Source: Candidatus Poribacteria bacterium
GTDB lineage: Bacteria > Poribacteria > WGA-4E > WGA-3G
Direction of reading: 5' to 3'
DNA length: 64,000 bases
Assembly: GCA_022826805.1 (NCBI GenBank)
Contig: JAJDUH010000044.1
Coordinates: 92,862 to 156,861 of the forward strand
Shown: one piece after another, positions 3,789 to 45,686 of the stretch
Position numbering within the stretch: the first letter of the stretch is position 1
Layout: the number at the start of each line of letters is the position of its first letter
Position numbers and translations under genes: made by a program
The notes under the pieces: generated by a model
The model's input: the letters and a program-made list of their open reading frames with translations, nothing else
Told to the model about the DNA's origin: nothing
Database searches by the model: none

Positions 3789-4649
3789 TTGGGATTACGC
3801 GCGGAGGCAAGCGGAAAAGTGAAGAAAGACATCACTTACCTGCACACCAAAAAACGAGAGCAGCAACCGATCACCGTGTTAACCTGCTACGATTACCCGA
3901 CTGCCTGTTTGCAAAACGAGGCAGGAATCGACATTGTCTTTGTCGGGGATAGTGTCGGTACCAATGTGCTCGGCTACAAAAGCGAGGTAGAGGTAACAAT
4001 GGCAGATATGCGACACCATCTTCAAGCGGTGCGTCGCGGTGTGACAGATGCTTATCTTCTCGTCGATATGCCTTACGCTGCTGACCGAGATGTGAAGCAA
4101 GCCGTTACCAATGCCAATCTTTTTTTGGATGATGGGGCTGACGGTGTCAAATTGGAAGGTGGTATTGAAAAGGTTCCGATCGTTACTGCCCTCACCAAAG
4201 CAGGGGTAGAGATCTGCGCCCATATCGGACATAATCCGCAAATCCATGGCACTAAAGCGGCGACACACGGAAAAACATTTGCGAAAGCGAAGCGACTCAT
4301 CGAATCAGCAGTAGCACTCACAGATGCCGGTGCGAAACTCATTGTCCTCGAAAAAATCACCGAAGAGGTCAGCCAAATCATAACGGATACCCTTAATATC
4401 CCTACCATCGGTATTGGGGCGGGACGGTTCTGCGACGGACAAGTCCTCGTTATCAACGATATATTAGGGATAGGTCCTCCCTTCAAACACGCTAAACGCT
4501 ACCAAAATTACAACCATTTGACTTTTGAGGCAATCTGTAAGTATCGGGAAGAGGTAGCAAACGGCACATTCCCTACAGACGCGAATGTCTCACACATCCC
4601 GCCAGATAAACTCGTGCGAGTGCAGAAGTGGTTGGGATCAGAACGTTAA
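3789..4649 (+). CDS. panB: 3-methyl-2-oxobutanoate hydroxymethyltransferase
   Basis: The sequence is PanB-like (ITVLTCYDYPTA..., FVGDSVGTNVLGY). The track gives a TTG start. An in-frame GTG at 3819 with GGAGG 11 nt upstream is a plausible alternative start. Confidence 0.9.
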   Translation: MGLRAEASGKVKKDITYLHTKKREQQPITVLTCYDYPTACLQNEAGIDIVFVGDSVGTNVLGYKSEVEVTMADMRHHLQAVRRGVTDAYLLVDMPYAADRDVKQAVTNANLFLDDGADGVKLEGGIEKVPIVTALTKAGVEICAHIGHNPQIHGTKAATHGKTFAKAKRLIESAVALTDAGAKLIVLEKITEEVSQIITDTLNIPTIGIGAGRFCDGQVLVINDILGIGPPFKHAKRYQNYNHLTFEAICKYREEVANGTFPTDANVSHIPPDKLVRVQKWLGSER

Positions 4650-4891
4650 GGTGTTCCACATCTCACATCCGCTTTCGTAGTATAAATTGTCAGTCTGTGC
4701 CACCATCGCACAAACCCTTAGTAAACCGGGGTTCCGAATCGTTGACGATTTGTCTTTATTTTCTCCAAGTGCCTGGGGCTGTGAAACGCGTAGAAAAATC
4801 CCTTGATCTTTGAAAATTCAACCGAAAGGTGATACGAATCGTCCAAACTTTAGTTACTTCTTAGACCCAACTCACGTTAGTATAGTTGCCT

Positions 4892-7800
4892 TTATTTCTG
4901 TATGATCATCTTCCGTGTAGCCGTGAAGTCGTCTGCGGTGAGGGTGTAAAAATAGATACCACTCGCAACAGACTCACCAACTTCATTCTTTCCATCCCAA
5001 TAGACGGCACGACTCCGATGTTGATAGATACCCGCGGGTTGATGTCCTACCTCTAACGTCCGCACTAACACACCCCTCGCCGTGTAGACACGCACCGTCA
5101 CATCCGCAGATTTCGAAAGTTGATACGGTATCCACGTCTCCGGGTTGAACGGATTCGGGTAGTTGTGGAACATGATTGTCTTTTTAGGGACAAACAACGC
5201 CAGCAACTGCTCCAGTTTTGCGATACCACTCCGGAAGGTCGGGGACCCATCATCCGCAGCACGCAAGAGGTCTAAGGCATCTTGAACCGCTTTAAACGTG
5301 ACGGCTGAGGGTAACGTAAACGTCGCAGGGGCTGCGGGTTGATTTTTTTCACCGAGATGCTCGGCGACAAGTGCGACGTCCTTCGCATCTACGACACCAT
5401 CTCCATTGACATCAGAGCGTGGGTTCACTGGGGTTTTTCTATCCCTATCCGATAGCACGATGAGGAGGTCTGTGGCATCGGTTTCTCCATCTTCGTTGAC
5501 ATCCCAAGCAGGAACAGTCGGGGCAGCGTTATCAATCGTGACGGTACCGGGTGGAATAACAGTGTATTCCGTGCCGGGGGCGAACCCGAAGAACCCGCTC
5601 CAACCTCCGCTCCTTTCGTAGACAGCGACTAACAGTGTATTATACCCCTGTTTCAGACTGACCAGGAACCTATCCTGAAAATCACCGGCTCCTCGATTCA
5701 CAGGATTGTTATGAACCAATTCTCCGTTAAGCCAGATCTTAACAGCGTCGTCACTGCCGACCATCATGGTCACTTGTTGATTTTTCGGTGATTCTATGGT
5801 GAGGGCACCGTAAGCCACGTGATCGTCTATATTACCAAATCCCAAGCCGGTGTCGTTTGCCATGTCATTGAGGTTGTCGCTGCCGGTCGCCGATAACTCA
5901 CCGGCTTTCCAGACTTTATCGCCGACGGGGTTTCCTTCGGTGGTACCGTTGGTAGCGACTTTCAGTTCCGTTACTTTTCCGTTACTGGCGACTGATAGGA
6001 AATCCACACCGGAACGCGCTGCCGCCGCGCCGCCGCTATCACCTGTTGACACGATCATCCACAACCAGGGACCTGTTATTTTGAGTCCGAGTCTGCTTGG
6101 CACGCCGGGACCAGGATTCCCTTCTGTCCGAATCGTGGTTTGGAACGGTAGTTGGTCTAAAGGCGAAAAGTCGGTTATCGCGTTGTTCCGCAAGTCGAGA
6201 CGTTCCAAGTTTCTGAGGCCTGTGAGGGGTGAGACATCTGAGATAACGTTGTTTTCAAGGTATAATACTTCCAGATTTTTTAATTCTGTGAGGGGCGAGA
6301 CATCTGAGATGACGTTCGCATCCAGATTCAACGTTCTCAAATTTTTCAGAGAACGCAACGCCGAAATATCTGATATTGTGTTATTCACCAATTCCAGCCA
6401 CTCCAGTTGTGTGAATTCCTTCAAGGGAGAGAGGTCCCTGATACTACAGTTATTGAGTTCAAGCCGCCGCAGCCGCTTGATCCCCTTTAGGGACGGAATA
6501 GTCGTTACAGAAGCATCGTTCCCGAATTCTATCCACTCCAACTTCGGTAATTGTGTCAAGGACGAGAAATCCGTGATAGGTGTATTCCAAGCATCTATCC
6601 GTTCCAGACTGGTGAGACTGGCGAGGGATGACACATCGGTGACGAGGTTTTCCGAAATGCCGATCCCCTCCAATTTTACCAATCCCTTCAATGGCGACAA
6701 ATCCGTGATGACGTTCTCTTCAAGCCCCAACCAGTCCACACTGAGCAGGTTTGCGAGGGGTGAGACATCCGAGATGACGTTATCCCGCAACTTGATGTTA
6801 TTCAGTCTGATCAATCCTTGCAGCGGGGTCACGTCAGAGATAGCGTTACGGCGGAGTTCTATCCGCTCCAGGTTCGTCGCATACTCTAATCCGATTAGGT
6901 CTTGGATGCCTCTGCCATCGGCACGGAGTTGTCTCAATTGTTTCATATCTTCATCCGTAATCGGGGCATTCGCGGCTTTACCGAGTGTTTGCGCAATCGC
7001 CGCGCGGAGGTTCGTATCTGGAATATAAACGGTGCCACCCAGTAAGGGTTGGGTTACTGGATTGACGGCAATAACCGGTGCCGGTACATCTGGTGAATGC
7101 AACGCTAAAACTACATCCGAAAATTGTGAGGTCCACACGTCCCGTTTCACGTTCCCACCATTGACGAGACCCGTTAAACCGAGCCCCTGTAAACTCAACT
7201 TCTTACCGATCTCTGAAAGAAACGCCCCTGTTTCTAAACCGATCGATGCAGCGGCGTATGCAGCGTCTACAGGTCCCTGATAAGTTTCATAGAAACGATG
7301 CACAGGTTCAATGCCTCCAAACACGCCACCTGTTTTTTCTAAAGAGGCCTCGTAACGTTTCGTATCTTCATCCAAAAGACGATCCATCGTGGGTTTATCC
7401 ACATAGAGACGTAAGGTGTGTGCTTTATCAAAACTCGGATTGCGCGTCTGTTCAATAACGCCTCGTACTGCATCTTCAAACCGTTTCATCCCTTCCGTGT
7501 GGCAACCGATACACGATAAACCGTTGTGGACAGCCGGATCACTCGCCGCCGGGTTGGACACGATGTTTGTCGGTGCAACATCTATCCGATTTCCAGCACC
7601 GTCTGAGATATAGTACGCCTGTAAACCGTTGGGAAGGTTGAACACCACTTCACCGCCATCCTGTTGGAAAGACAGTGGGTGCGTGAAAATGTTCTGCGTC
7701 CCAACGCTCCCCGCAAAGTCGTAACTCTTCCAGTAGGCACCATACCGAGACGTGTGTCGTTCTACAACGCGGTTATGATTAGAAACTCCCGAATCGTTGA

Positions 7801-8737
7801 AACCCGCGCGCCAGACGCGACGCCCCGGCGCATTCTGGAGATTCCGCAAAACGTCCACCTCAAGGGCCCGTTCTAATTCACGATCCGTCTGTGGTAGGTC
7901 AAGGATGTCATGATAGAGCGGCGGAAGAACAGCTGTCGCTAAGAACCAATCGACATAAACGTAAGGCACTTCGCAGTTCATCTCCTGACGCAGCTTTGTG
8001 AGTCTCGTAAACAAAACAGGGCGCTTTGTGGCATCAAACTTAATCGCGTAGGGATAAAGGGCTTCAATCTGTGTCCACGCGTCACGGATATCCCACTCAT
8101 AATCGCGCAAGTCGATGTAGAAGATCGTTTCGGCAGCATCAATCGGTTGCGGATTGATAATCTCAAATCCCCACGAGAGACTATTGACGAGTTTTGCGAG
8201 TGCGATTTTGTACGCATTGAGGGCTTCAAGCGTTTCGCCCGCGTTATAGAGATGCGTCATCGTGAAATACCGCGCGAAGGGACGGTCAAACACATCAAGC
8301 GTTGCCAAATGCCTCTGAATGGCAGTAAGCATCGCACCGGTTGTAATGAAGGTGATATCGTGTTGGACCTCCCAACTGGGCGCGCCTGCTTGAATCCATT
8401 TCCTAATGGTGCTAATTGCTGCAGCGGAAAGTTGAGGTTGTCCGAGGGGCATCCGTTTGATGAAGTCATTTTCAAGGAGCCGCGTGTAGAGCTCAGAGGT
8501 ACTGGGGCTACCTGGAACAACGGCACCCGTATTCACCAAACCGGTTGCCGACTCAATGACGAGATTTTCGGTAAAAGAGCCGTGGGTGCCGTGGCAGTTG
8601 AGACAGTTTTGTTGCAGGATAAGATACGCTTCTTGTGCAAGATCCTGTTGTGCAAATGCCGTTGTCCACGCTATGAGAATAAGTACTAACAGCGTTAGTG
8701 TATAAAGCATAGGGTTGGTTTCTCTTTGTGTTTTCAC
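4892..8737 (-). CDS. 1281-aa secreted multidomain surface protein (PSCyt-type cytochrome c domain, second CXXCH, about 13 LRRs, beta-sandwich domain, dockerin-like repeats, T9SS/FlgD-like C-terminal domain)
   Basis: A signal peptide is present. The N-terminus has CLNCHG followed by ..MPLG...IRKWIQAGAP, and a second heme motif is CIGCHTEG. Regular 22-aa LxxLxLxxNxIxDxSPL repeats follow, then DVNEDGETDATDLL and DVNGDGVVDAKDV. The C-terminus reads NYPNPFNPETWIPY...GIYFYTL. Confidence 0.85.
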   Translation of the reverse strand: MKTQRETNPMLYTLTLLVLILIAWTTAFAQQDLAQEAYLILQQNCLNCHGTHGSFTENLVIESATGLVNTGAVVPGSPSTSELYTRLLENDFIKRMPLGQPQLSAAAISTIRKWIQAGAPSWEVQHDITFITTGAMLTAIQRHLATLDVFDRPFARYFTMTHLYNAGETLEALNAYKIALAKLVNSLSWGFEIINPQPIDAAETIFYIDLRDYEWDIRDAWTQIEALYPYAIKFDATKRPVLFTRLTKLRQEMNCEVPYVYVDWFLATAVLPPLYHDILDLPQTDRELERALEVDVLRNLQNAPGRRVWRAGFNDSGVSNHNRVVERHTSRYGAYWKSYDFAGSVGTQNIFTHPLSFQQDGGEVVFNLPNGLQAYYISDGAGNRIDVAPTNIVSNPAASDPAVHNGLSCIGCHTEGMKRFEDAVRGVIEQTRNPSFDKAHTLRLYVDKPTMDRLLDEDTKRYEASLEKTGGVFGGIEPVHRFYETYQGPVDAAYAAASIGLETGAFLSEIGKKLSLQGLGLTGLVNGGNVKRDVWTSQFSDVVLALHSPDVPAPVIAVNPVTQPLLGGTVYIPDTNLRAAIAQTLGKAANAPITDEDMKQLRQLRADGRGIQDLIGLEYATNLERIELRRNAISDVTPLQGLIRLNNIKLRDNVISDVSPLANLLSVDWLGLEENVITDLSPLKGLVKLEGIGISENLVTDVSSLASLTSLERIDAWNTPITDFSSLTQLPKLEWIEFGNDASVTTIPSLKGIKRLRRLELNNCSIRDLSPLKEFTQLEWLELVNNTISDISALRSLKNLRTLNLDANVISDVSPLTELKNLEVLYLENNVISDVSPLTGLRNLERLDLRNNAITDFSPLDQLPFQTTIRTEGNPGPGVPSRLGLKITGPWLWMIVSTGDSGGAAAARSGVDFLSVASNGKVTELKVATNGTTEGNPVGDKVWKAGELSATGSDNLNDMANDTGLGFGNIDDHVAYGALTIESPKNQQVTMMVGSDDAVKIWLNGELVHNNPVNRGAGDFQDRFLVSLKQGYNTLLVAVYERSGGWSGFFGFAPGTEYTVIPPGTVTIDNAAPTVPAWDVNEDGETDATDLLIVLSDRDRKTPVNPRSDVNGDGVVDAKDVALVAEHLGEKNQPAAPATFTLPSAVTFKAVQDALDLLRAADDGSPTFRSGIAKLEQLLALFVPKKTIMFHNYPNPFNPETWIPYQLSKSADVTVRVYTARGVLVRTLEVGHQPAGIYQHRSRAVYWDGKNEVGESVASGIYFYTLTADDFTATRKMIIQK

Positions 8738-8777
8738 GAATGTTCTCCTTAAATAGCTCTGCCCAAAATTGTGGACA

Positions 8778-9650
8778 CTACTCCTTGATCTCAGTTACGA
8801 ATGTAATGATACCCGGTCGTGACCAGTTACGTGCCTTATCCGACCATGAAATCTCTATTGTATAGACAGTGCTATCTTTCAAAGGAAGCCCCTCGTCAAG
8901 CGCGAGAAATATTACCTTTTTATCTTGTATGAAGTGGGTCCATTCCATATCAACTTTTCTACTATCGTCAATGAGTTTCAGAATTACAGCGTCTATTTCC
9001 TCATCAAAAGTGAAAACAAAGCGATCAATGTCTGAGTTAACACCTATATCACCATGACTTATAGTAGAAGCAATTAAACGAGGTGATTGATTATCTTGAG
9101 GACCTGCTCCCTCTGCTGAAGTTATAAACGTGATGAGGACCACTCTGGCGTTCTGGTGTTCATCTTCAACTGTGCCAGTTATCGAATACGGGCTTTCCAC
9201 TTCTAAACCCTGCCCATCAAGCTTAGTCAGAAGTACTTCTTTCCCCTTAATAAATAGCGTCCATTTCAAGTTTACATTGTCTTTGTTGACAATCTTCAAG
9301 TCGGATTTACTGATTTTTTCATCAAAATTGAGCGTAATGTCCTCTAAATCAACATCGACATCAACCGCTCCAAAAGGTATACTGCTCTTCAAAAGTTTCG
9401 GAGCTACTAAGTCCCGAGCGCCACCATGAGGTGGCACGGGTTCTGGTTCAGGTCCCTCGACAATCGGCTCTGGTTCTGGAATCGGTTGTAGTTCTGGAAC
9501 GCGAACAGGCTCTGGTGGTTGTGGTTGGGTTTCAGTTTCTATTATCACGGGTGGTGTCGCGAAGATAGATTCTGATCCATCATTACTGCTATCTGTTGAA
9601 CAACCAACGATGCAAAGTATCAGTAAAAATATGAGTGAAAATTTCATCAA
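8778..9650 (-). CDS. lipoprotein with Pro/Glu-rich linker and two Ig-like (SbsA/Big_5-type) domains
   Basis: A lipobox is present (LILCIVGCSTD). Two internally similar domains of about 95 aa end in ITFIT and ITFVT. Confidence 0.75.
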   Translation of the reverse strand: MMKFSLIFLLILCIVGCSTDSSNDGSESIFATPPVIIETETQPQPPEPVRVPELQPIPEPEPIVEGPEPEPVPPHGGARDLVAPKLLKSSIPFGAVDVDVDLEDITLNFDEKISKSDLKIVNKDNVNLKWTLFIKGKEVLLTKLDGQGLEVESPYSITGTVEDEHQNARVVLITFITSAEGAGPQDNQSPRLIASTISHGDIGVNSDIDRFVFTFDEEIDAVILKLIDDSRKVDMEWTHFIQDKKVIFLALDEGLPLKDSTVYTIEISWSDKARNWSRPGIITFVTEIKE

Positions 9651-9668
9651 ATTTTGTCTCCTCTAATA

Positions 9669-10936
9669 TTAGTTATTCACGGCACCTTCATCAATCCAGT
9701 CGATAAAGAGCTGGACCTGTTCCGCATTGAGAGATGGAGGGATAGGGGGCATGCCGCCACCGTCAATACGTTTAACTACAAGACTGTCTTTACCGTTACC
9801 AGGGATGAATGCTGCACCACCATTTCCACCTTTTTTGAAGGTATCGTATTGGTTGAGGTTAAGCCCCCGAGCTCCAAGTGCAGCATGGCACCCCGGAATG
9901 GCACACCGTTCGGCGAGAATAGGCTGAATATCGTTCTTAAAAGAGATTTTGACAATTTTTTCAAATATATGCGCGGGAGCGACTAAGGTTTTGATTTGCG
10001 TTCCAAACCTTCCATCTGTGTAATCAATTGCGCGAATTTTCCAGCCCTTGTTATCCTTCTTCAGTGCGGCAATCAGATCTCCCTTCTGATTGCCCCAATC
10101 ATACGTACCTCGCAAAACGGCCTCTTTGCCTCGACTATCAATAGCGATATAGGTAATGTCAACATTCATCTTCCCGCCGCGGAGCCGAAAAATTCCCACC
10201 CATGCCTTCGATACTGCCTTCGTTCCTTCGTTTTTTTCAAAGGTGCCAGCCCAAAATGCCCAAGCCGTAAAAATGTCTTTGCTCTCGTCTGAGAGCCAAA
10301 CCTTTGTGAGCGTATCCTCGTCTTGGTCGCCATGGGCGGCAGCGTACACTGCACAGAGGTCACGAATGGCTTGTTCCTCAGCCACAAAGTCGATAAACTC
10401 TGTCACAAAGGTAATATTGAAAGGTGCCGTCCAATTGTGGGATCCATCTGCAACGCGGATAGTGATTGTATAAACATGTCCGCCTATTAACTGCAATCCT
10501 GTTCCCAAATTATGGAATAATCTTGCTAATTCTACCTCTTTATTGCGCACAAAAGGTACCATCCCATATTAAGTCCTGTTGTGTTGTCAACGAGTTTTAT
10601 AAAATTCGTGGCAGCAATATCCTCACTAAAAGTGAAAATGAAGCGTTCTATATTTAGGTCAACATCTATATCCCCATGACGCACAGAACTATTGATGATC
10701 TGTGGGGCTATATTATCCATCAATTCTGCTGCTACCACAGGTTCAACAATAGGCTCTGGAACAGGCGGGTTCACCATCTCTATTTGAATTTCTGGAGTAG
10801 TTGTTTCTTTTTTATTTTCAGAAATTATTGGCGGAATTGGGAATATTGAATCAACATCACCATCATCGGTGCTTTGCGAAGTACACGCGATCAGACAACA
10901 CACCAGTAAACACACACACACAGAGTTGTATAGCAT
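9669..10936 (-). pseudogene. lipoprotein gene split by a -1 frameshift near 10556-10562 (lipobox + Ig-like domain + NTF2/SnoaL-like region + C-terminal PSCyt-type heme domain); pseudogene, sequencing error or recoding
   Basis: ORF 10532..10969 stops in the middle of an Ig-like domain (..LNMGW). ORF 9669..10562, in the -1 frame, continues the same domain (VPFVRNKEVELARL...ITFVTEF), matching both domains of the paralogue at 8778..9650. The start at 10936 is supported by AGGAGGTCGTATGCTATACAAC, which is duplicated at 11465. Confidence 0.6.
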
Positions 10937-10976
10937 ACGACCTCCTCTTAAAACTTCACTAGGCAGCACCGCATTA

Positions 10977-11465
10977 TTAGCGAAAAGAGAAGTTTGTCGT
11001 TAAATTTTTTACTAAAACGCCTTCCCAGATACCGGGTTCCCTTAATCGGTCTAATCTTACAAGCAAAATATCTTCATTCGTTATGACACGTCCAAGCTCC
11101 GGGGTTATACCTGGAGCAGCCTCAGCAAGAACGATCTGAATAAGAATTGAGTCGTTAATTTCTAATACCAATGTATAGTAGTATGCAAATGTCTTTTGAT
11201 TAATACTTTTTCGTCTATAATCGGATTTAGCTCTATCCAATTTACCGCTGATATACTCGCCTTGAAAATCAGGTAAACATTCAATAATGGGTTCAAGTAG
11301 GTTCTCTGACGAGTTGTTATTTTCGTTATTATCTCCCTGAGCCAGGTTATTATCTTCCTCAGCCCCTGTTGGCGGAACAGGAAATATCGGGTCATCCCTG
11401 TTCTGCGAAGTACAGGCAATAACGCAACACATCAACAGACACAGGCACAAAGCGTTGTATAGCAT
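10977..11465 (-). CDS. small lipoprotein, unknown function
   Basis: The 162-aa ORF has a lipobox (CCVIACTSQN). Its RBS, start and signal peptide nearly duplicate those of the next gene at the DNA level. Confidence 0.7.
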   Translation of the reverse strand: MLYNALCLCLLMCCVIACTSQNRDDPIFPVPPTGAEEDNNLAQGDNNENNNSSENLLEPIIECLPDFQGEYISGKLDRAKSDYRRKSINQKTFAYYYTLVLEINDSILIQIVLAEAAPGITPELGRVITNEDILLVRLDRLREPGIWEGVLVKNLTTNFSFR

Positions 11466-11473
11466 ACGACCTC

Positions 11474-12556
11474 CTACTGATTAATAAGCGTAAATGTATA
11501 GCGTATCGTAACACGTCTACTAATTGGTTCTCCACTCCATATAGCAGGATAGAAAATCGTTTTCTTCAACGCCTGAATCGCTGCTTCCTCCAGTCCAAAT
11601 CCGAGGTCTGTGAGTGCTACAATGTCTATCGGAATGCCCTTCTCATTGATAGTCGCTGCTAAAACGACTTCACCTATTTTGTCCGCGTTCTTTGCGTCCT
11701 CTGGATATTTCGGATCGACTTTGAATTTGTATTGGGGACCGGCTACCTCAATATGAGGATCGTAGTCAATACCACTCGCTCTGCTGACAAGTTCTGGAAT
11801 CCCTGACTCAATTCTGCTGGTTTGTGATCGCACTTGACGCGGTATATTCAGAGTGGGTGCCTGATAAAAGTTCAATCCAAAGCGATACAGCAATTCCGAA
11901 CTCTCGAACGAGAACTCAATACTCCCGATAGCACTCATCGTCTGGGACATCTCAAGTTCTACTCCCGCTTCGCCGGTAAAGAAATTCTGTGACGTGTTCA
12001 AATGCACTTGCTTAGTTGTAGAGACGTTATTCCACGCCTGCGTATAAAACATCCCAAAAAACGGTTTCAGACTCCACTCATAGTCTGTCTGTAGAATATG
12101 TAAAAAGCCTGCCCCCCCTCGGAGTGCCATGTTCACGGCGTGCAGCGGTAAGTTTCCAGTCCTAACAACATTCATATACTGCGTTCTAAAACCGCCCAAT
12201 ATGAAAAATTTCAAACCTGTCATGTTCATATCGTTGACGTTTAAAAGGCGAATATCAATAGAAGGACTCGGTGCTATCTCGTAGGGATTTTCGGTGTTAG
12301 CCTCAAAAAAAGAGACACCGGGCAGCAGCGATACCTTCAGATCACGGCTAAACGTATAATCGAGATTGCCTAAGATCGTTTGTGCACTAAAGCGGAAGGG
12401 GGCCTCGCTGCGTTTCGGAGGTCTATAACGTTGGTATCCCATACCAATTGCCATCTTTCCAGCTGGTAATCTATGAAAACCTGTCTGTGCAGATACGGAC
12501 ACGGAAAACATTACAAGTACAAAAAACAGGACAAAACCAAGAATTCGCTTATTCAA
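11474..12556 (-). CDS. TonB C-terminal domain protein with N-terminal beta-rich (outer-membrane-like) region
   Basis: The C-terminal 90 aa are TonB-C-like (PKYPEDAKNADKIGEVVLAATINEKG...IRYTFTL). I prefer a TTG start at 12556, with AAGGAG 10 nt upstream, giving the signal peptide NKRILGFVLFFVLVMFSVSVSA. The track ORF extends to 12616. Confidence 0.7.
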   Translation of the reverse strand: MNKRILGFVLFFVLVMFSVSVSAQTGFHRLPAGKMAIGMGYQRYRPPKRSEAPFRFSAQTILGNLDYTFSRDLKVSLLPGVSFFEANTENPYEIAPSPSIDIRLLNVNDMNMTGLKFFILGGFRTQYMNVVRTGNLPLHAVNMALRGGAGFLHILQTDYEWSLKPFFGMFYTQAWNNVSTTKQVHLNTSQNFFTGEAGVELEMSQTMSAIGSIEFSFESSELLYRFGLNFYQAPTLNIPRQVRSQTSRIESGIPELVSRASGIDYDPHIEVAGPQYKFKVDPKYPEDAKNADKIGEVVLAATINEKGIPIDIVALTDLGFGLEEAAIQALKKTIFYPAIWSGEPISRRVTIRYTFTLINQ

Positions 12557-12614
12557 TAGTGTATTTCTCCTTCCTTGATTACAATCAAATTCAGCACGCT
12601 GTTCCCGATGTAAC

Positions 12615-12664
12615 AAAAAATGCCCGCAACAAGCTACTGTCTAAAACAGAGCGCGTGCGGGGCA
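12615..12664 (-). terminator. terminator-like hairpin + T6 about 60 nt upstream of the TonB-like gene
   Basis: In minus sense the sequence is TGCCCCGCA...TGCGGGCA followed by TTTTTT. Its role, as insulator or attenuator, is unknown. Confidence 0.4.
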
Positions 12665-12741
12665 CGAAGCCATCCCATCTTGCATTTAACAGTGAGATAA
12701 AGATATGTATTAATAAAATACTTAACAGAGAATAAGTTGAC

Positions 12742-12749
12742 GGGGGGGG
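12742..12749. repeat. homopolymeric G8 tract in the 500-bp AT-rich region upstream of the surface operon
   Basis: The run was counted directly (cGGGGGGGGt). Confidence 0.9.
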
Positions 12750-12979
12750 TAAATCCTAACTTGATAAACTAAACAACCTGAAACACACAAACATGCCATA
12801 GAAATTCGCACAGCCGGAACAATACCCTGTGTACAAGCTGAGACTTGCGATAGAAAACTAACGGTGTGCATCTTCATATCTGTTACCTTGCAAGAATGTG
12901 ATTGTTCAGTAATCTGTAAGGTCTATAAATATTATACAGAAACTTAAAATAATTGTCAATTTTTTTTGAAACCCGCAAA

Positions 12980-13063
12980 AAAATGTAAGGCAAAGACAAA
13001 TTTTGCGGCGTAAATCAGAATCAAAATCAACGGTATGAATGCCTTATGGCATGAACTGCGGGC
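12980..13063 (+). repeat. H-family mosaic hairpin element, copy H1 (modules AATGTAAGGCAAAGACAAATT + AATCAGAATCAAAATCAACGGTAT + hairpin GAATGCC-ttat-GGCAT)
   Basis: Modules are shared with the copies at 14634, 17706(-), 30865, 33429, 54329(-) and 60157(-). Confidence 0.75.
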
Positions 13064-13116
13064 AAAATTTGGTCCATCAACAATGGTTGAAATCAGAGCA
13101 CTAATGTGTCCAGTTT

Positions 13117-13758
13117 TTACATTGCGGTTTCATATGTGAGGTAGTAGTATCCAGATGCCTCAACGACCTGTGTACTTGCTAACCCTACAGCTTCCTTGAA
13201 AAACGGGGCATCTAATACCCACGTGTGGTATTCACCTTGTTCTCCGCAAAGATCAATTGGTAACTGCTTTAACTCTAAGATGAGTTCCGCATCCAAATAT
13301 CTACCGGCGATAGTAGATTGGAAATATTTTTTGTAGGCGAGAGAGCAGACGACTTTAAATTGGTTGGCGATCAGTGTCTCTAATATCGCCTCCCGATCCA
13401 ATTCCCACAGCGGTTTATCAACATCCACCAAACCGGCAGCGACGCCATCAATCCAATTGGGCATTCCATCCACAATAGAAATGTCCCCGGTAATCAATAC
13501 TTCAATCCCATTGTCTCTTATAGTCTTAATTTGTTGACGATAACTCAATTCATAAGGCTCAGAAATCGGCATGAATTCAATAGGAATCCCGATTTTTCGC
13601 GCTTGTAAGGTCATGAGTTGTGTCGGGTGTGCATAGAATTGCCGGTTATCTGCTGGGACAAAACAGACAAGCCGCCTTATATCGTAAAGATTTAAGGAGA
13701 CTTGAAGTGCAAGGGCAGAATCTTTCCCACCCGTCCACAGGACCGCTGCTTGCTTCAT
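13117..13758 (-). CDS. PP-loop ATP pyrophosphatase, Dph6/MJ0570-like (DUF71) family
   Basis: The PP-loop is WTGGKDSALAL, and the family motif GEQGEYHT is present. Confidence 0.8.
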   Translation of the reverse strand: MKQAAVLWTGGKDSALALQVSLNLYDIRRLVCFVPADNRQFYAHPTQLMTLQARKIGIPIEFMPISEPYELSYRQQIKTIRDNGIEVLITGDISIVDGMPNWIDGVAAGLVDVDKPLWELDREAILETLIANQFKVVCSLAYKKYFQSTIAGRYLDAELILELKQLPIDLCGEQGEYHTWVLDAPFFKEAVGLASTQVVEASGYYYLTYETAM

Positions 13759-39290: not shown

Positions 39291-42200
39291 TCAACGTAAA
39301 ATGGCAAGTTTCCCTATCTGCTCAATTTTACTTCCATCTTCCGTGCGGGCAATGACCCGATAAAAATACACACCGTTGGCACACCGCACTCCCGTCTCAT
39401 CCCTACCATCCCAACGGGTTTCGTTAACTCCGCGTTTGGCACTCGCATCAGCAAGTGTGCGCAGCAGTCTACCGCTGACGCTGTAAATTTTGATTGTGAC
39501 AGTGTCCGGTGCTTGTGCAAGGTGATAGGTGAAAAAGGTCTTTCCATCAACCGTTGGGTTTGGAACGTTGAATACCTCACTCAGTGTGACCTCCTCATTT
39601 AAGATAAAGGTCACAGCAAGTTCCGCTGTGTTTTCACTGGTATCCGCAGCAGTGATCTGGAACTGATACTCACCATTAGCGAGATCCGGGGCATAAGTGA
39701 TAGCGGCGTCTGCTGGCGCGGCAGGATCAAAGGTTTCGGTATAATCACTCGTCTCTAACAGTTCAAGGGTTTCGTATAGATTACCGAAATCGAGACGAAA
39801 AGAGGTTTCGTCAAGGGCACTGTCATCGGTGAGTGTAATTTTAAACCTGGGTTGTTCTGTGAGTACTGCGCCATCTATTAAGGGTTCGTCGACCGGCTCA
39901 CGCGCTGAACCTGTGCCGAGTGCAGTTATTTGGACGTCAATAGTAGGAGGTGTGAGGTCGGGGGCTTCAGTGACAAAAAATCTGTAACTAATGATTCCCT
40001 CGTCGTCCCCGACAGTGTTTCCATTGAAATCCCGCACAGTGATATTAAACGTATGTTCGCCCGGAAAGAGAATTGGTTGGTAATCAACCGGCACCGTCTG
40101 CGTATTCTCCTGTACCCGAAGTTCATAGTCGGTGACAGGTTCAAAGGGCCCTCCATCCTTTTTTCTTTCAAAGGTAAAGAATTCTGTATCAATACCGTTG
40201 GCATCTGCCAACACGATAGAGATAGTAGGGCGTGGCGGAATCACACTCCCGGTTTGCGGTTGAATGCCATCTACCCATATATTGAACGTAGGCGGCTCAG
40301 TATCGGTGCTCCGCATGAGCGCAAATTGTGTAAGCTCGCTGACCTCCGCTGTAATGGTTCCAATCTGAGCACTGCTAAACTTAATCTTATCACCGAATTC
40401 AAAGCTTTCGGAACTCCCAGTGACGAGAATCTCCAATCCGAGGTGACTGAGATAAATCGGTTCATTTACCTTGCCTCTGATTTTAACCCCATTCGGGTAA
40501 TGCGTAGGTTCGGCAGAAGCATCGCGAAGTTCATAGCGTTCAGGTTCGACAAAGAAGATAAACCAATCGCCTATTGCGAATTCCCCCTTGGCTCCGGGTC
40601 TACTCTCCACCGTGGCATTGCCATTACCCATGTTAGTGTTCCACGTGCGCCTAAGAACGACATCGCCTTGTGGGTTATAATCGGTTTTAAAAGCAAGAAT
40701 ATCGGCAAATTCAAAGGTGTAATTGACCCCTAACGGCGTGCTCTCTTGTCGTGGGATCCGCAACTCTAAACCGAAACCTTCCTCTCTGAACGGATTATCT
40801 AATTGCCCCGCCTGATCAAGCTTCTGCACAGTTGATTCTCCCTTCCGCTGGAGAAACACTTCGTATTCATCAGTATCCAAAAATAGAACTACCCAAGTCC
40901 CAGCAGGCGTAAGATTCGGATTAATCCTAATAAAGGAAGCCTCCAATTCCTGCTCGCTGGCATTCTCCATTTGCGTCGGCGTGACATAGTTTTCGAGCAG
41001 AAAATCCTTTTCAGAGGTGTAACCAATTTGAGATGACAAACGCCGCCACGCCGAAAAATCCGCTTGCCAGGCATAGACAGCCAACTGATCGGCAGTTTCC
41101 GCCAACGCTGCTTGAAATGCTGGTGTCCCAGATTGGAGCAATGTCTCTTCCCGAACAATATCCTCCAGAGCACTCACATCGAAGCGGAGCTTGATCTCAG
41201 CTGGTTTAGCGAGTTCTGTTATACCTGTACGAAAGGTGGGTTCGTAGTATTGGGCGACCTCTGTTCCCTGTCGGATGAGTCCGCGCCGGAGTGCAGCAAC
41301 CCGCGGAATGGGTGCGAATCGAATATCCGGTTGGGATGGATCAGTAGGCGACTGTGAAGAAACAGAAAGTGGAACACCAGCATTACCTTTTACCTCAGTG
41401 TCGAGTGCATTCGTCGGGAAATGGATGTCAAACACCCTATCCAAACTAAACGCTGTTAGTTCCTCTTGTGGTTTATAATTAAACTCATTGACAATAAAAG
41501 AGACGTGTTGTTTGTTATCAAATTGGCGCGATTCTTGGACATTCCCGAGGATTTGGTCATCAATTCCTGGATCATCAGGATCTGCGATGACATAGATTTT
41601 GTGTACACCCGTTACAAGAGGCTTTTCAAGTTCCAGCGTCGCGGTCACATATTGCAATACAAATGTGCCCTCCACCCAATCAGTGGGTTTGATGGTCAGA
41701 CGCCCTAAGATATTAGCATCTTCGTCAATGATGCTATCCCCTTCTGCATCCGGATTGCCCTCAGCAAACACTACCTCAATATCAGCGCGAACAGGACGAC
41801 CACCGGCATTGACGATTTCCGCGACGAGTTGGTAGCCGTTTTTCTCTTCATCAAACTCATATCGGATAGGTGCCTTGTCTGCTTCATCCGTACCAACAGC
41901 AATATTGGGACCTTCGGGGACTTTAACGATATTACGTTCTAATTTCGATGGAATGGCTATCTCATGCCCTGTCCTATCAGTGATAAGGATTCGATATCGG
42001 ACCTGCCGTCCGCCTTGCGGAAGCGGGATAGGTGTTTGGAGTTGATACCACTGTCCACCCAGCGGCACATCACCAAGGGGTACAGGGGCTTTAACCATAG
42101 GTATTGTTTCGTCTTTGAAGGTAGCGGTATCATCCCATAAGACGTTGATACTTCGTATACCCGCTGGCCCGCGATCATCAACAATAAGGGCACTGATATT

Positions 42201-45200
42201 GAGCGTATCGGTGACTTTGATGTCGAGTGTTTCTCGAATGTCGTGTACAACCGGGGTTTCGACCCAGAATCGGGCACCGCCGACAGCGGCACGGATATCG
42301 TCATAAGCAAAGACGCGAGCGACACCGCCGCCCGGTAACGCGCTATTTGGAACATCAATGCGAATCGTTCCATATTCGCCCTGCCAAACTCTACCACGGG
42401 TCCGTGGGGATAGTTCATTATTAAGGTCATCGTCGAAATTATTTGCGAAGACCGCGACAGCAGAAAGTGATTCTGTACTAAAATCGGAAGCACGGGTGAA
42501 AGTCGGACTTCCTGTAACCCCAATCTCCGAATTTTCAATTATACCTACCTCGCCCGCCTTTATGACAATCTCATGCGTCTTGTTGACTGCGATGCGTTCC
42601 AATTCGACCTTTATATCAAATTCGGGGAGGGCGAGGCGAGATGCTGGATCACCAAAGAGCGTATATTGCTCGGTACCGGGAATCCACTGCGTGTTCCTGA
42701 TACGGGTAAGAAAACTAATCTTCGCATTGGCAATAACATGTCCTACTGTCGCTGAAGTGGACGGTGTCTGAAACCCTGTATCTAAATTCCCGGCGCGACC
42801 GACCTCGAATAAAGCCTCAAAGAGATCCTCGTCAAACTCAGCATTTGCTGCCCCATACGTCAAGCGCGTTGCCGAAAGCGCCGCAATAGCACCATGTTCA
42901 CCCAACAAAAATTGCTCACTAAGACAATGGTTTCCTGCCTGCTGCGGTTTATCAAACTGCCCATTAAGGCAGGTTGTCGTTATAACAAAAGGCAGGTTTC
43001 GGTTTCGTAATTCGAGAACATCCTCAAGCCGGAAAATAGATTCATCCGCCCAAGTTTGAATGCCACCGTGTCCCGTGTACTCAATTAGGAGCGCGCCTTG
43101 ATTGATTGCGGAACGGATTCGGAAGCGTGTAAGTTCTGGACTTCTAATCTTTCGGAGATAGATTTGGCGGGTGTTGTAGCCTACCGGTATAATTTCCTCT
43201 ATTAGTTGGTCGCGCGATACCTCAAAAACGCCATCGGACGGGTTGTCCGTGTGATCATCAGCTACCTGGATTAATGTACCTTGCCACGATCCTGTTTTAA
43301 GATTCTTTTCATAGTTGATGATCTTTTCAACCATAGTTGTGAGATCTTCAGGGTTTTGAACAGAGAGTCTCCCAATTAGCATATCAGGCAGCGCATCATC
43401 ACCACTGACGTTGACGAAGCGCTGATCCATAGCAGTTTCACCACTTTCAGGTGACCAACCGTGGAACGTCGGCACGAAGATTGGATAGAGGTTATAAGTG
43501 CCTCGGAATGATGGATCTCGACGATAAAGTTCAACGGTAGCCCTCTTGTAATCGTAGTGAGCATCCCCAATCAGAACAACGTAAGTAGGAACAGGCTGTT
43601 GCCAATTGTTATAGACATATCGGAGAAACTTTTGAATAGCGAGCGGGTTGAAAAGACCATCACTAAATTCGTTGTAGATGTCGCCAATATCAACCACCAT
43701 AGCAGTTAAACCTTGTGAACGCCGGAACTCAACAAGAGGCTGGATGGCCTTAGTAAAGGTCGGATGTGTTATGACAACGTAGTCAGCTTGATTGGCGGGG
43801 TTCCGAAGCAACGTTGGTGGTGTCGGAACAAGGGCATTGATACTGCGATAAGCGGTACGACCTATGACAAAATAGCGCGTATGTCGATTGACGGTATCCT
43901 CAAAGAGGATTTGATAACTGGCACCTCTCCGAGAAACCTCACCGCCAGTGAGTTTACTCGTAATGCCGTTATCATCAAGCTGATACACATCTATCGTTTC
44001 CTGGAAAATGTTACTCACCCGATATTGGACTTTACCGCGGTTGCGAGGTTCGGTATTGGTATTAAATTCCAAGCGGTTGGTATTTGCCTGAAAGTTCCGC
44101 CAATAATCGAGTTCATACCAATCCAGATAGAAATCAGTGGAACCTGCGGGGGTTTTATTCGCATCAAGTGCATCAATACGCATAAAATTCACTTGGTTAT
44201 GGTGGATGCGCGCCTGTGGAATATTGCGGGTTGCGATCTGCGACGCTTGACGTTTCCACTCCTCAATCCTACCAAGTTGAAGTCCATTGAAGGAGATTCG
44301 TGCCAAGTGGAGTGCCGACCCTCTGCGGGAAGCTCCTTGGAACTTGAGACGTAGGAGTGCATTGCGATTGACCTCAAGACGCGGTACTGCCATAGGCAAT
44401 TCTATAGGGAAATCCTTTCGACTCGTGTTAATATTTCCACCACGGAAGGAAACCCAGAAATAATGATCAGCAAGTTCAGACTTAACATCAACACCGGACA
44501 AAGTATCGTGATGCACGTTTTGTTCAAAACGTTCGCGTGTTAGAAAGGCGGTTGGCGCTACCAAGTTTTCCGTACGTGGTGTCGCGTCTCGCGTCGTCAC
44601 ACCGGAAGGCTCAAGATTTCCGGCAGGTGCTCCGCGCAAAGCAAAAAGGAGCCAATAGACATTCTCATCAGTAAATTTATTGTCCGACAATGCACGCCCG
44701 TAAAAGACGATCTGTTCACCAGTGTCAAGGACATCGTTTTCATTTTCATCAAAGATGTAAACGCCCTGTTTCTGTCCCCCGCTTTCCAACTGAAGTGTAT
44801 CAAGATTAATATCCTCTGGTTCAACACCAGCAGCCTTAATGTTATTATAAGTAATGCGATAGAGATCTGTTTTGACAACCGGGATTTTAAAGCGGTATGT
44901 GTTAGCACCCGTTAATGCTGGTGCCCCAGGAATGTTGTTCCCACGCGCGGCACTATAGGACATCCGCCGCCGACTCCGCCACAATTTCGCTTGCTCGTAG
45001 TTTCGCAATGTATCCCGGAACATGCTCTCAAAGACGGGACTGGCACCTTGAACAGATTTTTGAGCAGGAGAAAATGTGTTGCCGACAGATGTTCCGCCCG
45101 CTACTGGCGCGTAGGGAAAATTAATGCGGAACGTCACAGACGTGAATATTCGCAACTGTTTTGTCCGTGAATTGTATTGCACTGGGTTGATTTGCAGGCT

Positions 45201-45686
45201 GGCGATGCGCTGATCACGTACAAAGCCGCTGGGGATAATCTCTACGAGTTTCGAGGGATAAAATCCTTGCAAAGCACGGCGAGGTGTAGAAACCGAAGTT
45301 GGAAAAATGGGGTCGTCGGGTGTGACACGTACATTCTCAACACTTCTTACCTCTGGACGAGCCTGAATGACTGTAACAATCGGGGTTCCAGCGACAGGAA
45401 TCCCGATGCACTGGGCGTAGATAGGGAGTCGAGGTCTACCTACGTCAAGCGTTCGATCTGCACCCGCAAAATGGATCTCGGTTCCCAAATCTGCAGCATC
45501 TCCTGCAACAGAAGGGGAAGGGGTCTTTATCTGAAGTTCTGGTAACTCAAAACGCGCCGTGAGTATATCCCCTGTGATCGAAAGCACCCTTAGAGGTGAC
45601 GCTGGATATGTCTGTCCTATCGCAATGGACATTGAATCAGCATAGAGTACAAGAACTATCAATACAAAAATGTAAGTCTTTTTCAT
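39291..45686 (-). CDS. 2131-aa secreted peptidase C25 (gingipain-like) family protein with many Ig-like domains and T9SS/FlgD-like C-terminal domain
   Basis: A signal peptide is present. C25 hallmarks are YVVLIGDAHYDYK, YTGHGG (catalytic His) and TTTCLNGQFD (catalytic Cys). The C-terminus reads FNVPNP...IYSVSGRLL...GVYFYRV. Confidence 0.85.
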   Translation of the reverse strand: MKKTYIFVLIVLVLYADSMSIAIGQTYPASPLRVLSITGDILTARFELPELQIKTPSPSVAGDAADLGTEIHFAGADRTLDVGRPRLPIYAQCIGIPVAGTPIVTVIQARPEVRSVENVRVTPDDPIFPTSVSTPRRALQGFYPSKLVEIIPSGFVRDQRIASLQINPVQYNSRTKQLRIFTSVTFRINFPYAPVAGGTSVGNTFSPAQKSVQGASPVFESMFRDTLRNYEQAKLWRSRRRMSYSAARGNNIPGAPALTGANTYRFKIPVVKTDLYRITYNNIKAAGVEPEDINLDTLQLESGGQKQGVYIFDENENDVLDTGEQIVFYGRALSDNKFTDENVYWLLFALRGAPAGNLEPSGVTTRDATPRTENLVAPTAFLTRERFEQNVHHDTLSGVDVKSELADHYFWVSFRGGNINTSRKDFPIELPMAVPRLEVNRNALLRLKFQGASRRGSALHLARISFNGLQLGRIEEWKRQASQIATRNIPQARIHHNQVNFMRIDALDANKTPAGSTDFYLDWYELDYWRNFQANTNRLEFNTNTEPRNRGKVQYRVSNIFQETIDVYQLDDNGITSKLTGGEVSRRGASYQILFEDTVNRHTRYFVIGRTAYRSINALVPTPPTLLRNPANQADYVVITHPTFTKAIQPLVEFRRSQGLTAMVVDIGDIYNEFSDGLFNPLAIQKFLRYVYNNWQQPVPTYVVLIGDAHYDYKRATVELYRRDPSFRGTYNLYPIFVPTFHGWSPESGETAMDQRFVNVSGDDALPDMLIGRLSVQNPEDLTTMVEKIINYEKNLKTGSWQGTLIQVADDHTDNPSDGVFEVSRDQLIEEIIPVGYNTRQIYLRKIRSPELTRFRIRSAINQGALLIEYTGHGGIQTWADESIFRLEDVLELRNRNLPFVITTTCLNGQFDKPQQAGNHCLSEQFLLGEHGAIAALSATRLTYGAANAEFDEDLFEALFEVGRAGNLDTGFQTPSTSATVGHVIANAKISFLTRIRNTQWIPGTEQYTLFGDPASRLALPEFDIKVELERIAVNKTHEIVIKAGEVGIIENSEIGVTGSPTFTRASDFSTESLSAVAVFANNFDDDLNNELSPRTRGRVWQGEYGTIRIDVPNSALPGGGVARVFAYDDIRAAVGGARFWVETPVVHDIRETLDIKVTDTLNISALIVDDRGPAGIRSINVLWDDTATFKDETIPMVKAPVPLGDVPLGGQWYQLQTPIPLPQGGRQVRYRILITDRTGHEIAIPSKLERNIVKVPEGPNIAVGTDEADKAPIRYEFDEEKNGYQLVAEIVNAGGRPVRADIEVVFAEGNPDAEGDSIIDEDANILGRLTIKPTDWVEGTFVLQYVTATLELEKPLVTGVHKIYVIADPDDPGIDDQILGNVQESRQFDNKQHVSFIVNEFNYKPQEELTAFSLDRVFDIHFPTNALDTEVKGNAGVPLSVSSQSPTDPSQPDIRFAPIPRVAALRRGLIRQGTEVAQYYEPTFRTGITELAKPAEIKLRFDVSALEDIVREETLLQSGTPAFQAALAETADQLAVYAWQADFSAWRRLSSQIGYTSEKDFLLENYVTPTQMENASEQELEASFIRINPNLTPAGTWVVLFLDTDEYEVFLQRKGESTVQKLDQAGQLDNPFREEGFGLELRIPRQESTPLGVNYTFEFADILAFKTDYNPQGDVVLRRTWNTNMGNGNATVESRPGAKGEFAIGDWFIFFVEPERYELRDASAEPTHYPNGVKIRGKVNEPIYLSHLGLEILVTGSSESFEFGDKIKFSSAQIGTITAEVSELTQFALMRSTDTEPPTFNIWVDGIQPQTGSVIPPRPTISIVLADANGIDTEFFTFERKKDGGPFEPVTDYELRVQENTQTVPVDYQPILFPGEHTFNITVRDFNGNTVGDDEGIISYRFFVTEAPDLTPPTIDVQITALGTGSAREPVDEPLIDGAVLTEQPRFKITLTDDSALDETSFRLDFGNLYETLELLETSDYTETFDPAAPADAAITYAPDLANGEYQFQITAADTSENTAELAVTFILNEEVTLSEVFNVPNPTVDGKTFFTYHLAQAPDTVTIKIYSVSGRLLRTLADASAKRGVNETRWDGRDETGVRCANGVYFYRVIARTEDGSKIEQIGKLAILR

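Follow-up and report, generated by a model that had tools for sequence, protein, structure and literature searches.

A candidate surface-display gene cluster of Candidatus Poribacteria combining a barrel-like protein with a TonB C-terminal domain, lipoproteins and a predicted two-haem leucine-rich-repeat giant

Background

Candidatus Poribacteria are dominant, uncultured symbionts of sponges, and their surface proteins built of leucine-rich repeats (LRR), WD40 and TPR repeats are the main genomic lead to their dealings with the host. C-terminal tails of the TIGR04183 type have been reported on poribacterial repeat proteins by Kamke et al. in 2014, who did not find Por genes (PMC3909097). Here we analyze a run of five minus-strand genes (g1 to g5), flanked by panB and a pair of Dph6-like genes, in a 64,000-nt stretch of a Candidatus Poribacteria genome of 5.09 Mb (80 contigs, 94% complete; assembly GCA_022826805.1, contig JAJDUH010000044.1, positions 92,862 to 156,861). 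The whole stretch is called the window, and coordinates given without a label are positions in it; labels starting with C mark places elsewhere in the same genome, and those starting with L or G mark loci of relatives.

Some described systems serve for comparison. In Bacteroidota, genes of type-B cargo handled by type IX secretion (the T9SS) adjoin the genes of their cognate PorP/SprF barrels. PorE, another type IX component, has a cell-wall-binding OmpA_C-like domain (PMC12773672), and in Myxococcus the outer-membrane barrel TraB, the partner of the surface receptor TraA, holds or positions it (PMC12045341).

Set beside these systems, the cluster in the window is read here, with moderate confidence, as a lineage-restricted cell-envelope cluster for surface display, present in part of one Candidatus Poribacteria genus, and not as an energised transporter. 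This reading is based on the domain content of the proteins, the sizes of their families, a gene order that recurs, and the source from which g1 obtained its TonB C-terminal domain (TonB_C). New here are the fusion of a barrel-like domain to TonB_C and its linkage, within a narrow clade, to one subfamily of giant surface proteins.

Results

Layout of the cluster

The genes and the domains of the last of them are as follows.

11474..12556, minus strand: g1, with a signal peptide, a beta-rich domain of about 215 aa, a linker of about 40 aa and TonB_C (11486-11713)
10977..11465, minus strand: g2, a 162-aa lipoprotein with the lipobox VIAC
10532..10936, minus strand: 5' part of g3, with a lipoprotein signal (LIAC), a Pro-rich linker and the first half of an Ig-like domain
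9669..10562, minus strand: 3' part of g3, with the rest of the Ig-like domain, a 137-aa insert (9990-10400) and a PSCyt1-like domain (9744-9890, CAIPGCH)
8778..9647, minus strand: g4, a lipoprotein (IVGC) that has two Ig-like domains and a long linker rich in Pro and Glu
4892..8737, minus strand: g5, 1281 aa, with a signal peptide that ends in TAFA before QQ (read from the sequence)
8378-8605, minus strand: class-I cytochrome c domain of g5 (PSCyt1, 23.8 bits, cut-off 22)
7073-8377, minus strand: domain of g5 of about 440 aa with a second CxxCH (motif 7499-7513), no Pfam family and no PDB fold neighbour
6068-7030, minus strand: internalin-type LRRs of g5, about 12 repeats of 22 residues counted by hand (LRR_4 123.9 bits; LRR_8 also above cut-off)
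5468-6040, minus strand: beta-sandwich of g5
5288-5440, minus strand: dockerin of g5 (Dockerin_1, PF00404, 37.3 bits, cut-off 22.9), both DVNxDG loops visible
4895-5161, minus strand: T9SS-type A C-terminal domain of g5 (TIGR04183, 33 bits, cut-off 23), residues 1193-1280 of 1281

The gaps between the genes measure 8 nt (g1-g2), 40 nt (g2-g3), 18-21 nt (g3-g4) and 40 nt (g4-g5). A first-pass annotation of this DNA, made from the letters alone, had described a five-gene run on one strand with short gaps, and this holds (8-40 nt), except that g3 is not a single open reading frame (ORF). Most of its domain calls are reproduced by Pfam and NCBIfam (TonB_C, PSCyt1 twice, Big_5, LRR, dockerin and TIGR04183), and one of them, an NTF2/SnoaL-like region in g3, is not. 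The 22-nt string AGGAGGTCGTATGCTATACAAC, which spans the ribosome-binding site and the start and which it had noticed at the second and third genes, indeed has exactly two occurrences, one where g2 starts and one where g3 starts, against a chance expectation of 0.

The giant and its predicted two-haem head

In the fifth gene the first-pass annotation had seen a PSCyt domain, a second CxxCH, about 13 LRRs, a dockerin and a T9SS-type C-terminal domain, all of which are recovered, with the repeat count nearer to 12. The first ~115 residues of g5 match class-I cytochromes in PDB profile searches (FoxE, 2.4e-9; cytochrome c-552, 1.7e-7), and a PDB sequence search of the whole head matched this cytochrome c part only. 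Among 78 diverse homologues of the head, residues C45, C48, H49, M96 and P97 are invariant, as are C409, C412 and H413 of the second CxxCH, and the head is accordingly predicted from its sequence to carry two haems. An AF2 model of residues 1-560 built with these 78 sequences reached pLDDT 93.2 and pTM 0.89 (33 close homologues had given pLDDT 49, which was unusable), and a Foldseek search of the model against PDB returned nothing below E=1. Likewise, a PDB search of the beta-sandwich found nothing significant. In Pfam the tail of g5 is scored as FlgD_ig (37.7 bits, above cut-off), with Por_Secre_tail reaching only 20.5 bits (cut-off 27). The internalin_A model, whose cut-off is 1600, gives 167 bits, and its alignment is restricted to the LRR region of 22-residue repeats. 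Cytochrome c maturation genes are represented in the genome by three matches to PF01578 above cut-off.

The head of g5 is by no means confined to this gene. More than 4,400 proteins match it in a word-indexed search, and its ~440-aa second domain falls into 3,725 clusters at 50% identity. The window's genome has seven matches to residues 1-560; five are full-length copies, and the other two are weak and cover the cytochrome c region only. Sister genomes have up to 14 matches each. Fusions of the head to TPR, WD40, FGE-sulfatase, VWA, beta-helix or kinase domains occur in other lineages, among them Gemmataceae and Chthonomonadaceae. A contig scan of genomes, in which the best 80 loci are all from Poribacteria, is uninformative on wider distribution. 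Between paralogues the head is 60-79% identical and far more conserved than the rest of the protein. The orthologue group of g5 (1256-1281 aa) has no cohesin domain (PF00963), which most paralogues carry. Judged by its domains, g5 is thus a cohesin-less member of a poribacterial family built of the two-haem head, LRRs, a dockerin and a sorting tail, sometimes with a cohesin as well, and no description of this giant family was found in the literature searched.

A barrel-like protein that carries a TonB C-terminal domain

The longest ORF of g1 (380 aa) extends to 12616, but its true start is probably the TTG at 12556, located behind a GGAAGGAG ribosome-binding site, because the homologues begin at MNKR. 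TonB_C occupies residues 302-377 of the 380-aa ORF (PF03544, 44.3 bits, cut-off 24.6); TIGR01352 (34.1 bits, cut-off 27.1) and a PDB profile match to TonB2 (2k9k, 1.6e-8) agree with Pfam and with the first-pass annotation on this domain. The protein begins with a cleavable signal peptide (VSVSA before QT, read from the sequence), followed by a stretch of about 215 residues with alternating hydrophobic residues. The same beta-rich stretch is found in barrel-only proteins of 224-250 aa that end exactly at the domain border; in five aligned homologues of this kind the C-terminal residue is Tyr (three) or His (two). Because of the alternating hydrophobic residues and of these homologues, the N-terminal domain of g1 is a probable small outer-membrane beta-barrel. 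The barrel-TonB_C fusion family comprises 128 proteins, and full-length g1 is present in only 6 of 25 same-genus genomes searched, this genome included.

The last ~126 residues of g1 are 44% identical to the C-terminus of the canonical TonB of this genome (C60), a membrane-anchored protein of 317 aa with an internal His-containing transmembrane helix; compared with the TonBs of sister genomes (~320 aa), the identity over this part is 44-51%. Given the 44% identity to the C60 protein, the TonB_C of g1 derives from the resident TonB, and g1 as a whole would be a barrel that captured a copy of that domain. No inner-membrane anchor and no Pro-rich periplasm-spanning spacer is present in its sequence, and in none of the 14 loci examined does exbB, exbD or a gene of a TonB-dependent receptor lie next to g1. 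With neither an anchor nor exbBD nearby, g1 cannot act as a TonB-type energy transducer, and the suggestion that it is one has to be given up.

Lipoproteins with a common start and exchangeable modules

g2 is a 162-aa lipoprotein, as had been proposed, and it matches no Pfam or NCBIfam family. Its orthologues (44-90% identity) follow g1 in L011, L017, L018 and L019, 161-aa lipoproteins occupy the same position in L025, L027 and L028, and a paralogue is encoded at C26. The description of g4 as a lipoprotein with two Ig-like domains is also sound, with Pfam scoring the second of them as Big_5 (34.2 bits, cut-off 23.6); its orthologues in L011 and L013 are 87-94% identical, and single-domain versions occur in other loci.

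The case of g3, described earlier as one ORF combining an Ig-like domain, an NTF2/SnoaL-like region and a cytochrome c domain, is more complex. The reading frames 10532-10969 and 9669-10562 overlap and require a -1 shift to be joined; the break near 10563 corresponds to a 1-nt deletion relative to the closest relative, L011, whose counterpart of g3 is intact (284 aa) and has one extra A after a Trp codon (TGG ATA CCT against TGG-TACCT). A programmed frameshift was considered and ruled out, as there is no slippery heptamer at the break and L011 is simply one base longer. In this assembly g3 is either a pseudogene or affected by an assembly error. The Ig-like domain is retained, and the PSCyt1 assignment stands (26.6 bits, cut-off 22), but with C-x4-CH instead of CxxCH. 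Of the CxxCH regions expected earlier to match haem-binding profiles, the first of g5 does match those of class-I cytochromes c (PSCyt1, FoxE and c-552). The NTF2/SnoaL-like identity of the insert finds no support (SnoaL_4 E=0.64; no significant match in a PDB search). This 137-aa insert is missing from L011; a lipoprotein of 205 aa that stands alone at C29 shares 81% identity with it, and the PSCyt part is 84% identical to a small lipoprotein at C3, likewise with C-x4-CH. As the modules also stand alone as lipoproteins of the same genome and the insert is absent from L011, g3 is a recent mosaic of three lipoprotein modules. Lipoproteins with a PSCyt1-like C-x4-CH domain form a small family (9744-9890 in the window, C3:126286-126837 and C27:127301-127951), with the variants CAIPGCH, CSIPGCH and CALAGCH; at its end the copy at C27 has a long tail rich in Asp and His.

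All lipoproteins of the cluster (8778-11465 in the window, and L011-L028) share a motif directly after the lipid-anchor Cys, C-S/T-S/T-D-S-x-D/N-D-x-S-I/L-F-P/A-V/T-P-P, followed by long Pro-rich spacers and by domains that differ. Such an acidic, Ser-rich start resembles the surface-export signals of Bacteroidota lipoproteins. Adjacent lipoprotein genes often have near-identical signal peptides, which suggests repeated duplication of the 5' end or gene conversion.

Gene order in relatives

In all nine loci with an orthologue of the giant (the window, L011, L012, L013, L022, L025, L026, L027 and L028) it lies downstream of g1 and one to three lipoprotein genes, and the gene order is thus conserved in relatives, as the first-pass annotation had expected of an operon. 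Of the features typical of an operon, the cluster has a single strand, gaps of 8-40 nt and an order kept in 9/9 loci, with a lipoprotein number that varies from one to three. A fixed make-up of five genes is contradicted by this variation, by a Uma2 gene in two loci and by the absence of the giant in 5 of 14. A lipoprotein gene follows g1 in 14/14 loci, and also follows the barrel-only paralogues in L020 and L021, and g1 with its lipoprotein is the tighter unit.

The block is found in two genomic contexts, either between trpG/dph6 and panB, as in the window, or with a multihaem-TPR gene on one side and a gene for a caspase-PEGA-FGE-sulfatase protein on the other. Since the same block occurs in both, it has stayed together through relocation. 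Neither flanking gene of the second context was found in the window's genome when sought as an empty ancestral site. In L013 (and also in L025-L028) these flanking genes, multihaem-TPR and Peptidase_C14-PEGA-FGE-sulfatase, are seen at L013:10995-13676 and L013:1098-3188. The Uma2-family (endonuclease-like) inserts are located at L025:11290-12087 and L027:6057-6875. L022 has a Uma2 gene too, upstream of g1 and together with one for a DNA methyltransferase.

The first of the second-context neighbours bears on the function that the first-pass annotation had proposed, namely a cell-surface redox or haem-dependent binding or uptake apparatus, in which the haem domains of g3 and g5 would carry out electron transfer or hold a ligand, with energy or gating provided by the TonB-like protein. 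This neighbour is a membrane protein of 893-911 aa with a multihaem cytochrome region and TPR repeats (in the 893-aa protein, Cytochrome_C554 scores 32.6 bits, above cut-off, beside a sub-threshold MtrC-like match), and it speaks for a redox function together with the strong conservation of the g5 head, in which both CxxCH motifs and Met96 are invariant, and with the second haem-type domain in g3. In addition, the 928-aa metagenomic protein P0367 has the two-haem head, TonB_C (56.8 bits) and FGE-sulfatase in one chain, which is a weak hint that the haem head and TonB_C may work together. On the other hand, the multihaem neighbour is absent from the window's genome, the haem domain of g3 is absent from most orthologous loci and broken here, and the fusions of the head to TPR, WD40, VWA, FGE-sulfatase and kinase domains in other phyla fit a sensor or enzyme head better than a part of a transporter. 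Moreover, g1 has no anchor for coupling to ExbBD, and the cluster encodes neither exbBD nor a TonB-dependent receptor; as g1 is not an energy transducer, its energising role is contradicted and the uptake apparatus is not supported. We regard this explanation in its entirety as quite improbable, although the two-haem head by itself may have a surface redox role.

Candidate secretion machinery

More than 45 ORFs of the genome carry a C-terminal domain of the TIGR04183 type. Candidates for the corresponding machinery include three ORFs for PorU-like giants with a C25 peptidase (269 bits, below the cut-off of 420), one of them inside the window, PorV-like ORFs (83.5 bits, below 250), some of which adjoin PorU-like ones, and a SprA-like ORF of 2252 aa that aligns in four collinear pieces (the best with 59.6 bits, below 200). 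Por-like genes are located at 39291-45686 (minus strand) in the window and at C15:76057-81119, C31:49329-50606 and C10:23707-27504. A search of the genome with TIGR03519 (PorP/SprF) gave only one match, at C17, with E=0.011.

The pairing of type-B cargo with PorP/SprF barrel genes in Bacteroidota raises the question whether g1 and the lipoproteins are dedicated type IX helpers of the giant, analogous to PorP/SprF and PorE, and serve its export and not its anchoring. The combination of a barrel with a periplasmic binding domain in g1 would follow the same logic. However, the PorP/SprF model does not match g1, the tail of the giant is of type A, which needs no private barrel in known systems, and dozens of other proteins of this genome with the same C-terminal domain have no such neighbours. 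A role as secretion helpers is therefore, in our opinion, very unlikely.

Upstream region and antisense reading frame

One promoter-like site precedes the cluster.

12931..12959, minus strand: site matching the sigma-70 consensus, TTGACA-17-TATAAT, at 12/12 positions, ~370 nt upstream of g1

No second perfect match exists within 4500-13300, where the total of promoter-like sites is no higher than in shuffled sequences. Weak hairpin-plus-U-run sites are seen at two places, 12666-12654 and 12634-12622, of the ~370-nt leader between this site and g1 (12557-12930). When 4500-13300, leader included, was scanned with Rfam, no family matched. No convincing internal terminator was seen within the cluster. 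On the plus strand, a 392-aa ORF (5850-7028) lies opposite the part of g5 that encodes the LRRs. This frame is open in two g5 orthologues as well, over 392 aa in G012 and 427 aa in G007, and it is most likely a by-product of the codon content of the repeats.

Discussion

Extending the surface-display reading to a mechanism, we infer the barrel, the places of the proteins, the secretion route, the loading of haem and the coupling of the parts as follows. g1 would have its barrel in the outer membrane and its TonB_C in the periplasm as a binding domain, a layout like that of OmpA proteins, uncoupled from ExbBD and the proton-motive force. The one to three lipoproteins that follow it (three here), with their shared tether motif, Pro-rich spacers and Ig-like domains of the Big_5 type, evolve by tandem duplication and module swapping. 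g5 would be exported by Sec, receive its haems in the periplasm from the cytochrome c maturation system and cross the outer membrane by means of its C-terminal domain and the divergent SprA/PorV/PorU-like type IX components. Once displayed, it may serve as an LRR-based adhesin or receptor, and its dockerin could bind cohesins on paralogues. By analogy with TraB, the barrel-TonB_C protein and the lipoproteins would most likely form a periplasm-tethered outer-membrane platform that holds or positions the giant. The strongest version of this proposal, that g1, the tethered lipoproteins and the cohesin-less giant form one dedicated outer-membrane complex, in which a re-used TonB_C uncoupled from the proton-motive force holds a haem-bearing receptor, is unlikely in our estimation; if true, sponge symbionts would possess a surface device for redox sensing or adhesion of a kind not seen before.

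A number of results weigh against the surface-display reading. The N-terminal domain of g1 has no Pfam match at E<=10 and no PDB match, and the OMP_b-brl and PorP/SprF (TIGR03519) models do not match g1. The SprA-, PorU- and PorV-like matches are all under the family cut-offs, and the GldL/GldM motor was not detected in the 94%-complete genome (no match to TIGR03517, and only E=0.067 for TIGR03513). The Ig-like domains of the lipoproteins were considered as cohesin-like receptors of the dockerin, and their homology to cohesin was rejected with an hhalign probability of 0.3%.

The remaining adverse points concern the linkage itself, and they also speak for the explanation that the genes are neighbours by descent only: g1 and the lipoproteins would form one envelope module, and the giant would be an unrelated arrival in the ancestor of the clade, with no coupling between them. 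The orthologue of the giant is missing from 5 of 14 g1 loci, so that the g1-lipoprotein pair stands without it in L017, L018, L023 and L024, and in L019 the giant nearby is a paralogue. The Uma2 gene of L025 and L027 separates the giant from the lipoproteins, and the slot after the lipoproteins varies further: in G014 it is taken by another lipoprotein, of 387 aa, and in G008 by an LRR/C-terminal-domain protein of 737 aa together with a paralogue giant. Other giant paralogues in the window's genome have neither g1 nor lipoprotein neighbours. Every locus that shows the linkage belongs to a single narrow clade, and shared descent therefore accounts for much of the synteny. Against descent alone, the 9/9 cohesin-less orthologues examined sit behind g1, the block is intact in two contexts, though the window's genome lacks both of the ancestral flanking genes, and the gene that replaces the giant downstream shares its beta-sandwich module, in G008 also the LRRs, dockerin and sorting tail. 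On balance, we find mere neighbourhood rather unlikely, albeit the most serious of the alternatives, and prefer surface display.

The locus ties one subfamily of surface proteins to a possible membrane platform and thereby makes a concrete search for partners possible, with the dockerin, TonB_C and the lipoprotein tether as starting points. g1 offers a clean example of a TonB C-terminal domain copied onto a predicted outer-membrane protein. The two-haem head, with more than 3,700 sequence clusters in several phyla, a confident model and no known fold, merits biochemical study. Finally, the divergent SprA/PorU/PorV-like genes bear on the exit of tail-bearing proteins, a question that the 2014 single-cell study left open (PMC3909097).

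Comparison with known systems

As regards TonB (E. coli TonB; Vibrio TonB2, PDB 2k9k), the C-terminal ~80 residues of g1 are a genuine TonB_C domain; unlike TonB, g1 has no inner-membrane anchor, Pro-rich spacer or exbBD neighbours, and has a signal peptide and a barrel-like domain instead. The N-terminal ~75 residues of g5 are like those of modular PSCyt1 proteins and class-I c-type cytochromes (FoxE, 5mab; c-552), with CxxCH and an axial Met, whereas its ~440-aa domain with an invariant CxxCH of its own matches no PSD or PSCyt2-3 domain of planctomycete PSCyt1 proteins. The likeness to class-1 internalins of Listeria is confined to the LRRs and does not extend over the full length.

g5 has the head, internalin-type LRRs, beta-sandwich, dockerin and sorting tail of the two-haem/LRR/cohesin/dockerin family, but no other copy in its genome is linked, as g5 is, to lipoproteins and a barrel-TonB_C gene. 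Its dockerin has the canonical two loops (DVNEDG.., DVNGDG..) known from cellulosomes, and cohesins are present on its paralogues; in contrast to cellulosomes, there is no cohesin in g5 or in the cluster, and no carbohydrate-active enzyme domain is attached. The eukaryote-like repeat proteins of Poribacteria described by Kamke et al. carry the same TIGR04183 tail, and neither the haem head nor the gene neighbourhood of g5 is described there (PMC3909097).

With the type IX system of Bacteroidota (PorU/PorV/SprA) the cluster shares the type-A C-terminal domain of g5, above the NCBIfam cut-off, in a genome with PorU-, PorV- and SprA-like ORFs; the differences are that the matches to the machinery are below cut-off, GldL/GldM are undetected and the phylum lies outside the FCB group, from which the characterised systems of this type come. 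PorP and PorE, which are associated with type IX cargo, are comparable to g1 and the lipoproteins beside the giant. Another functional parallel is TraA/TraB of Myxococcus xanthus. The surface receptor of this co-encoded pair combines a signal peptide and a C-terminal sorting tag with a variable binding domain, and its partner is an outer-membrane barrel with a periplasmic anchoring domain (PMC12045341). The domain in TraB is of the OmpA type and the tag of TraA is MYXO-CTERM, whereas the poribacterial cluster uses TonB_C, a type-IX-like C-terminal domain, additional lipoproteins and haem domains; the likeness is one of function, and we claim no homology between the two systems.

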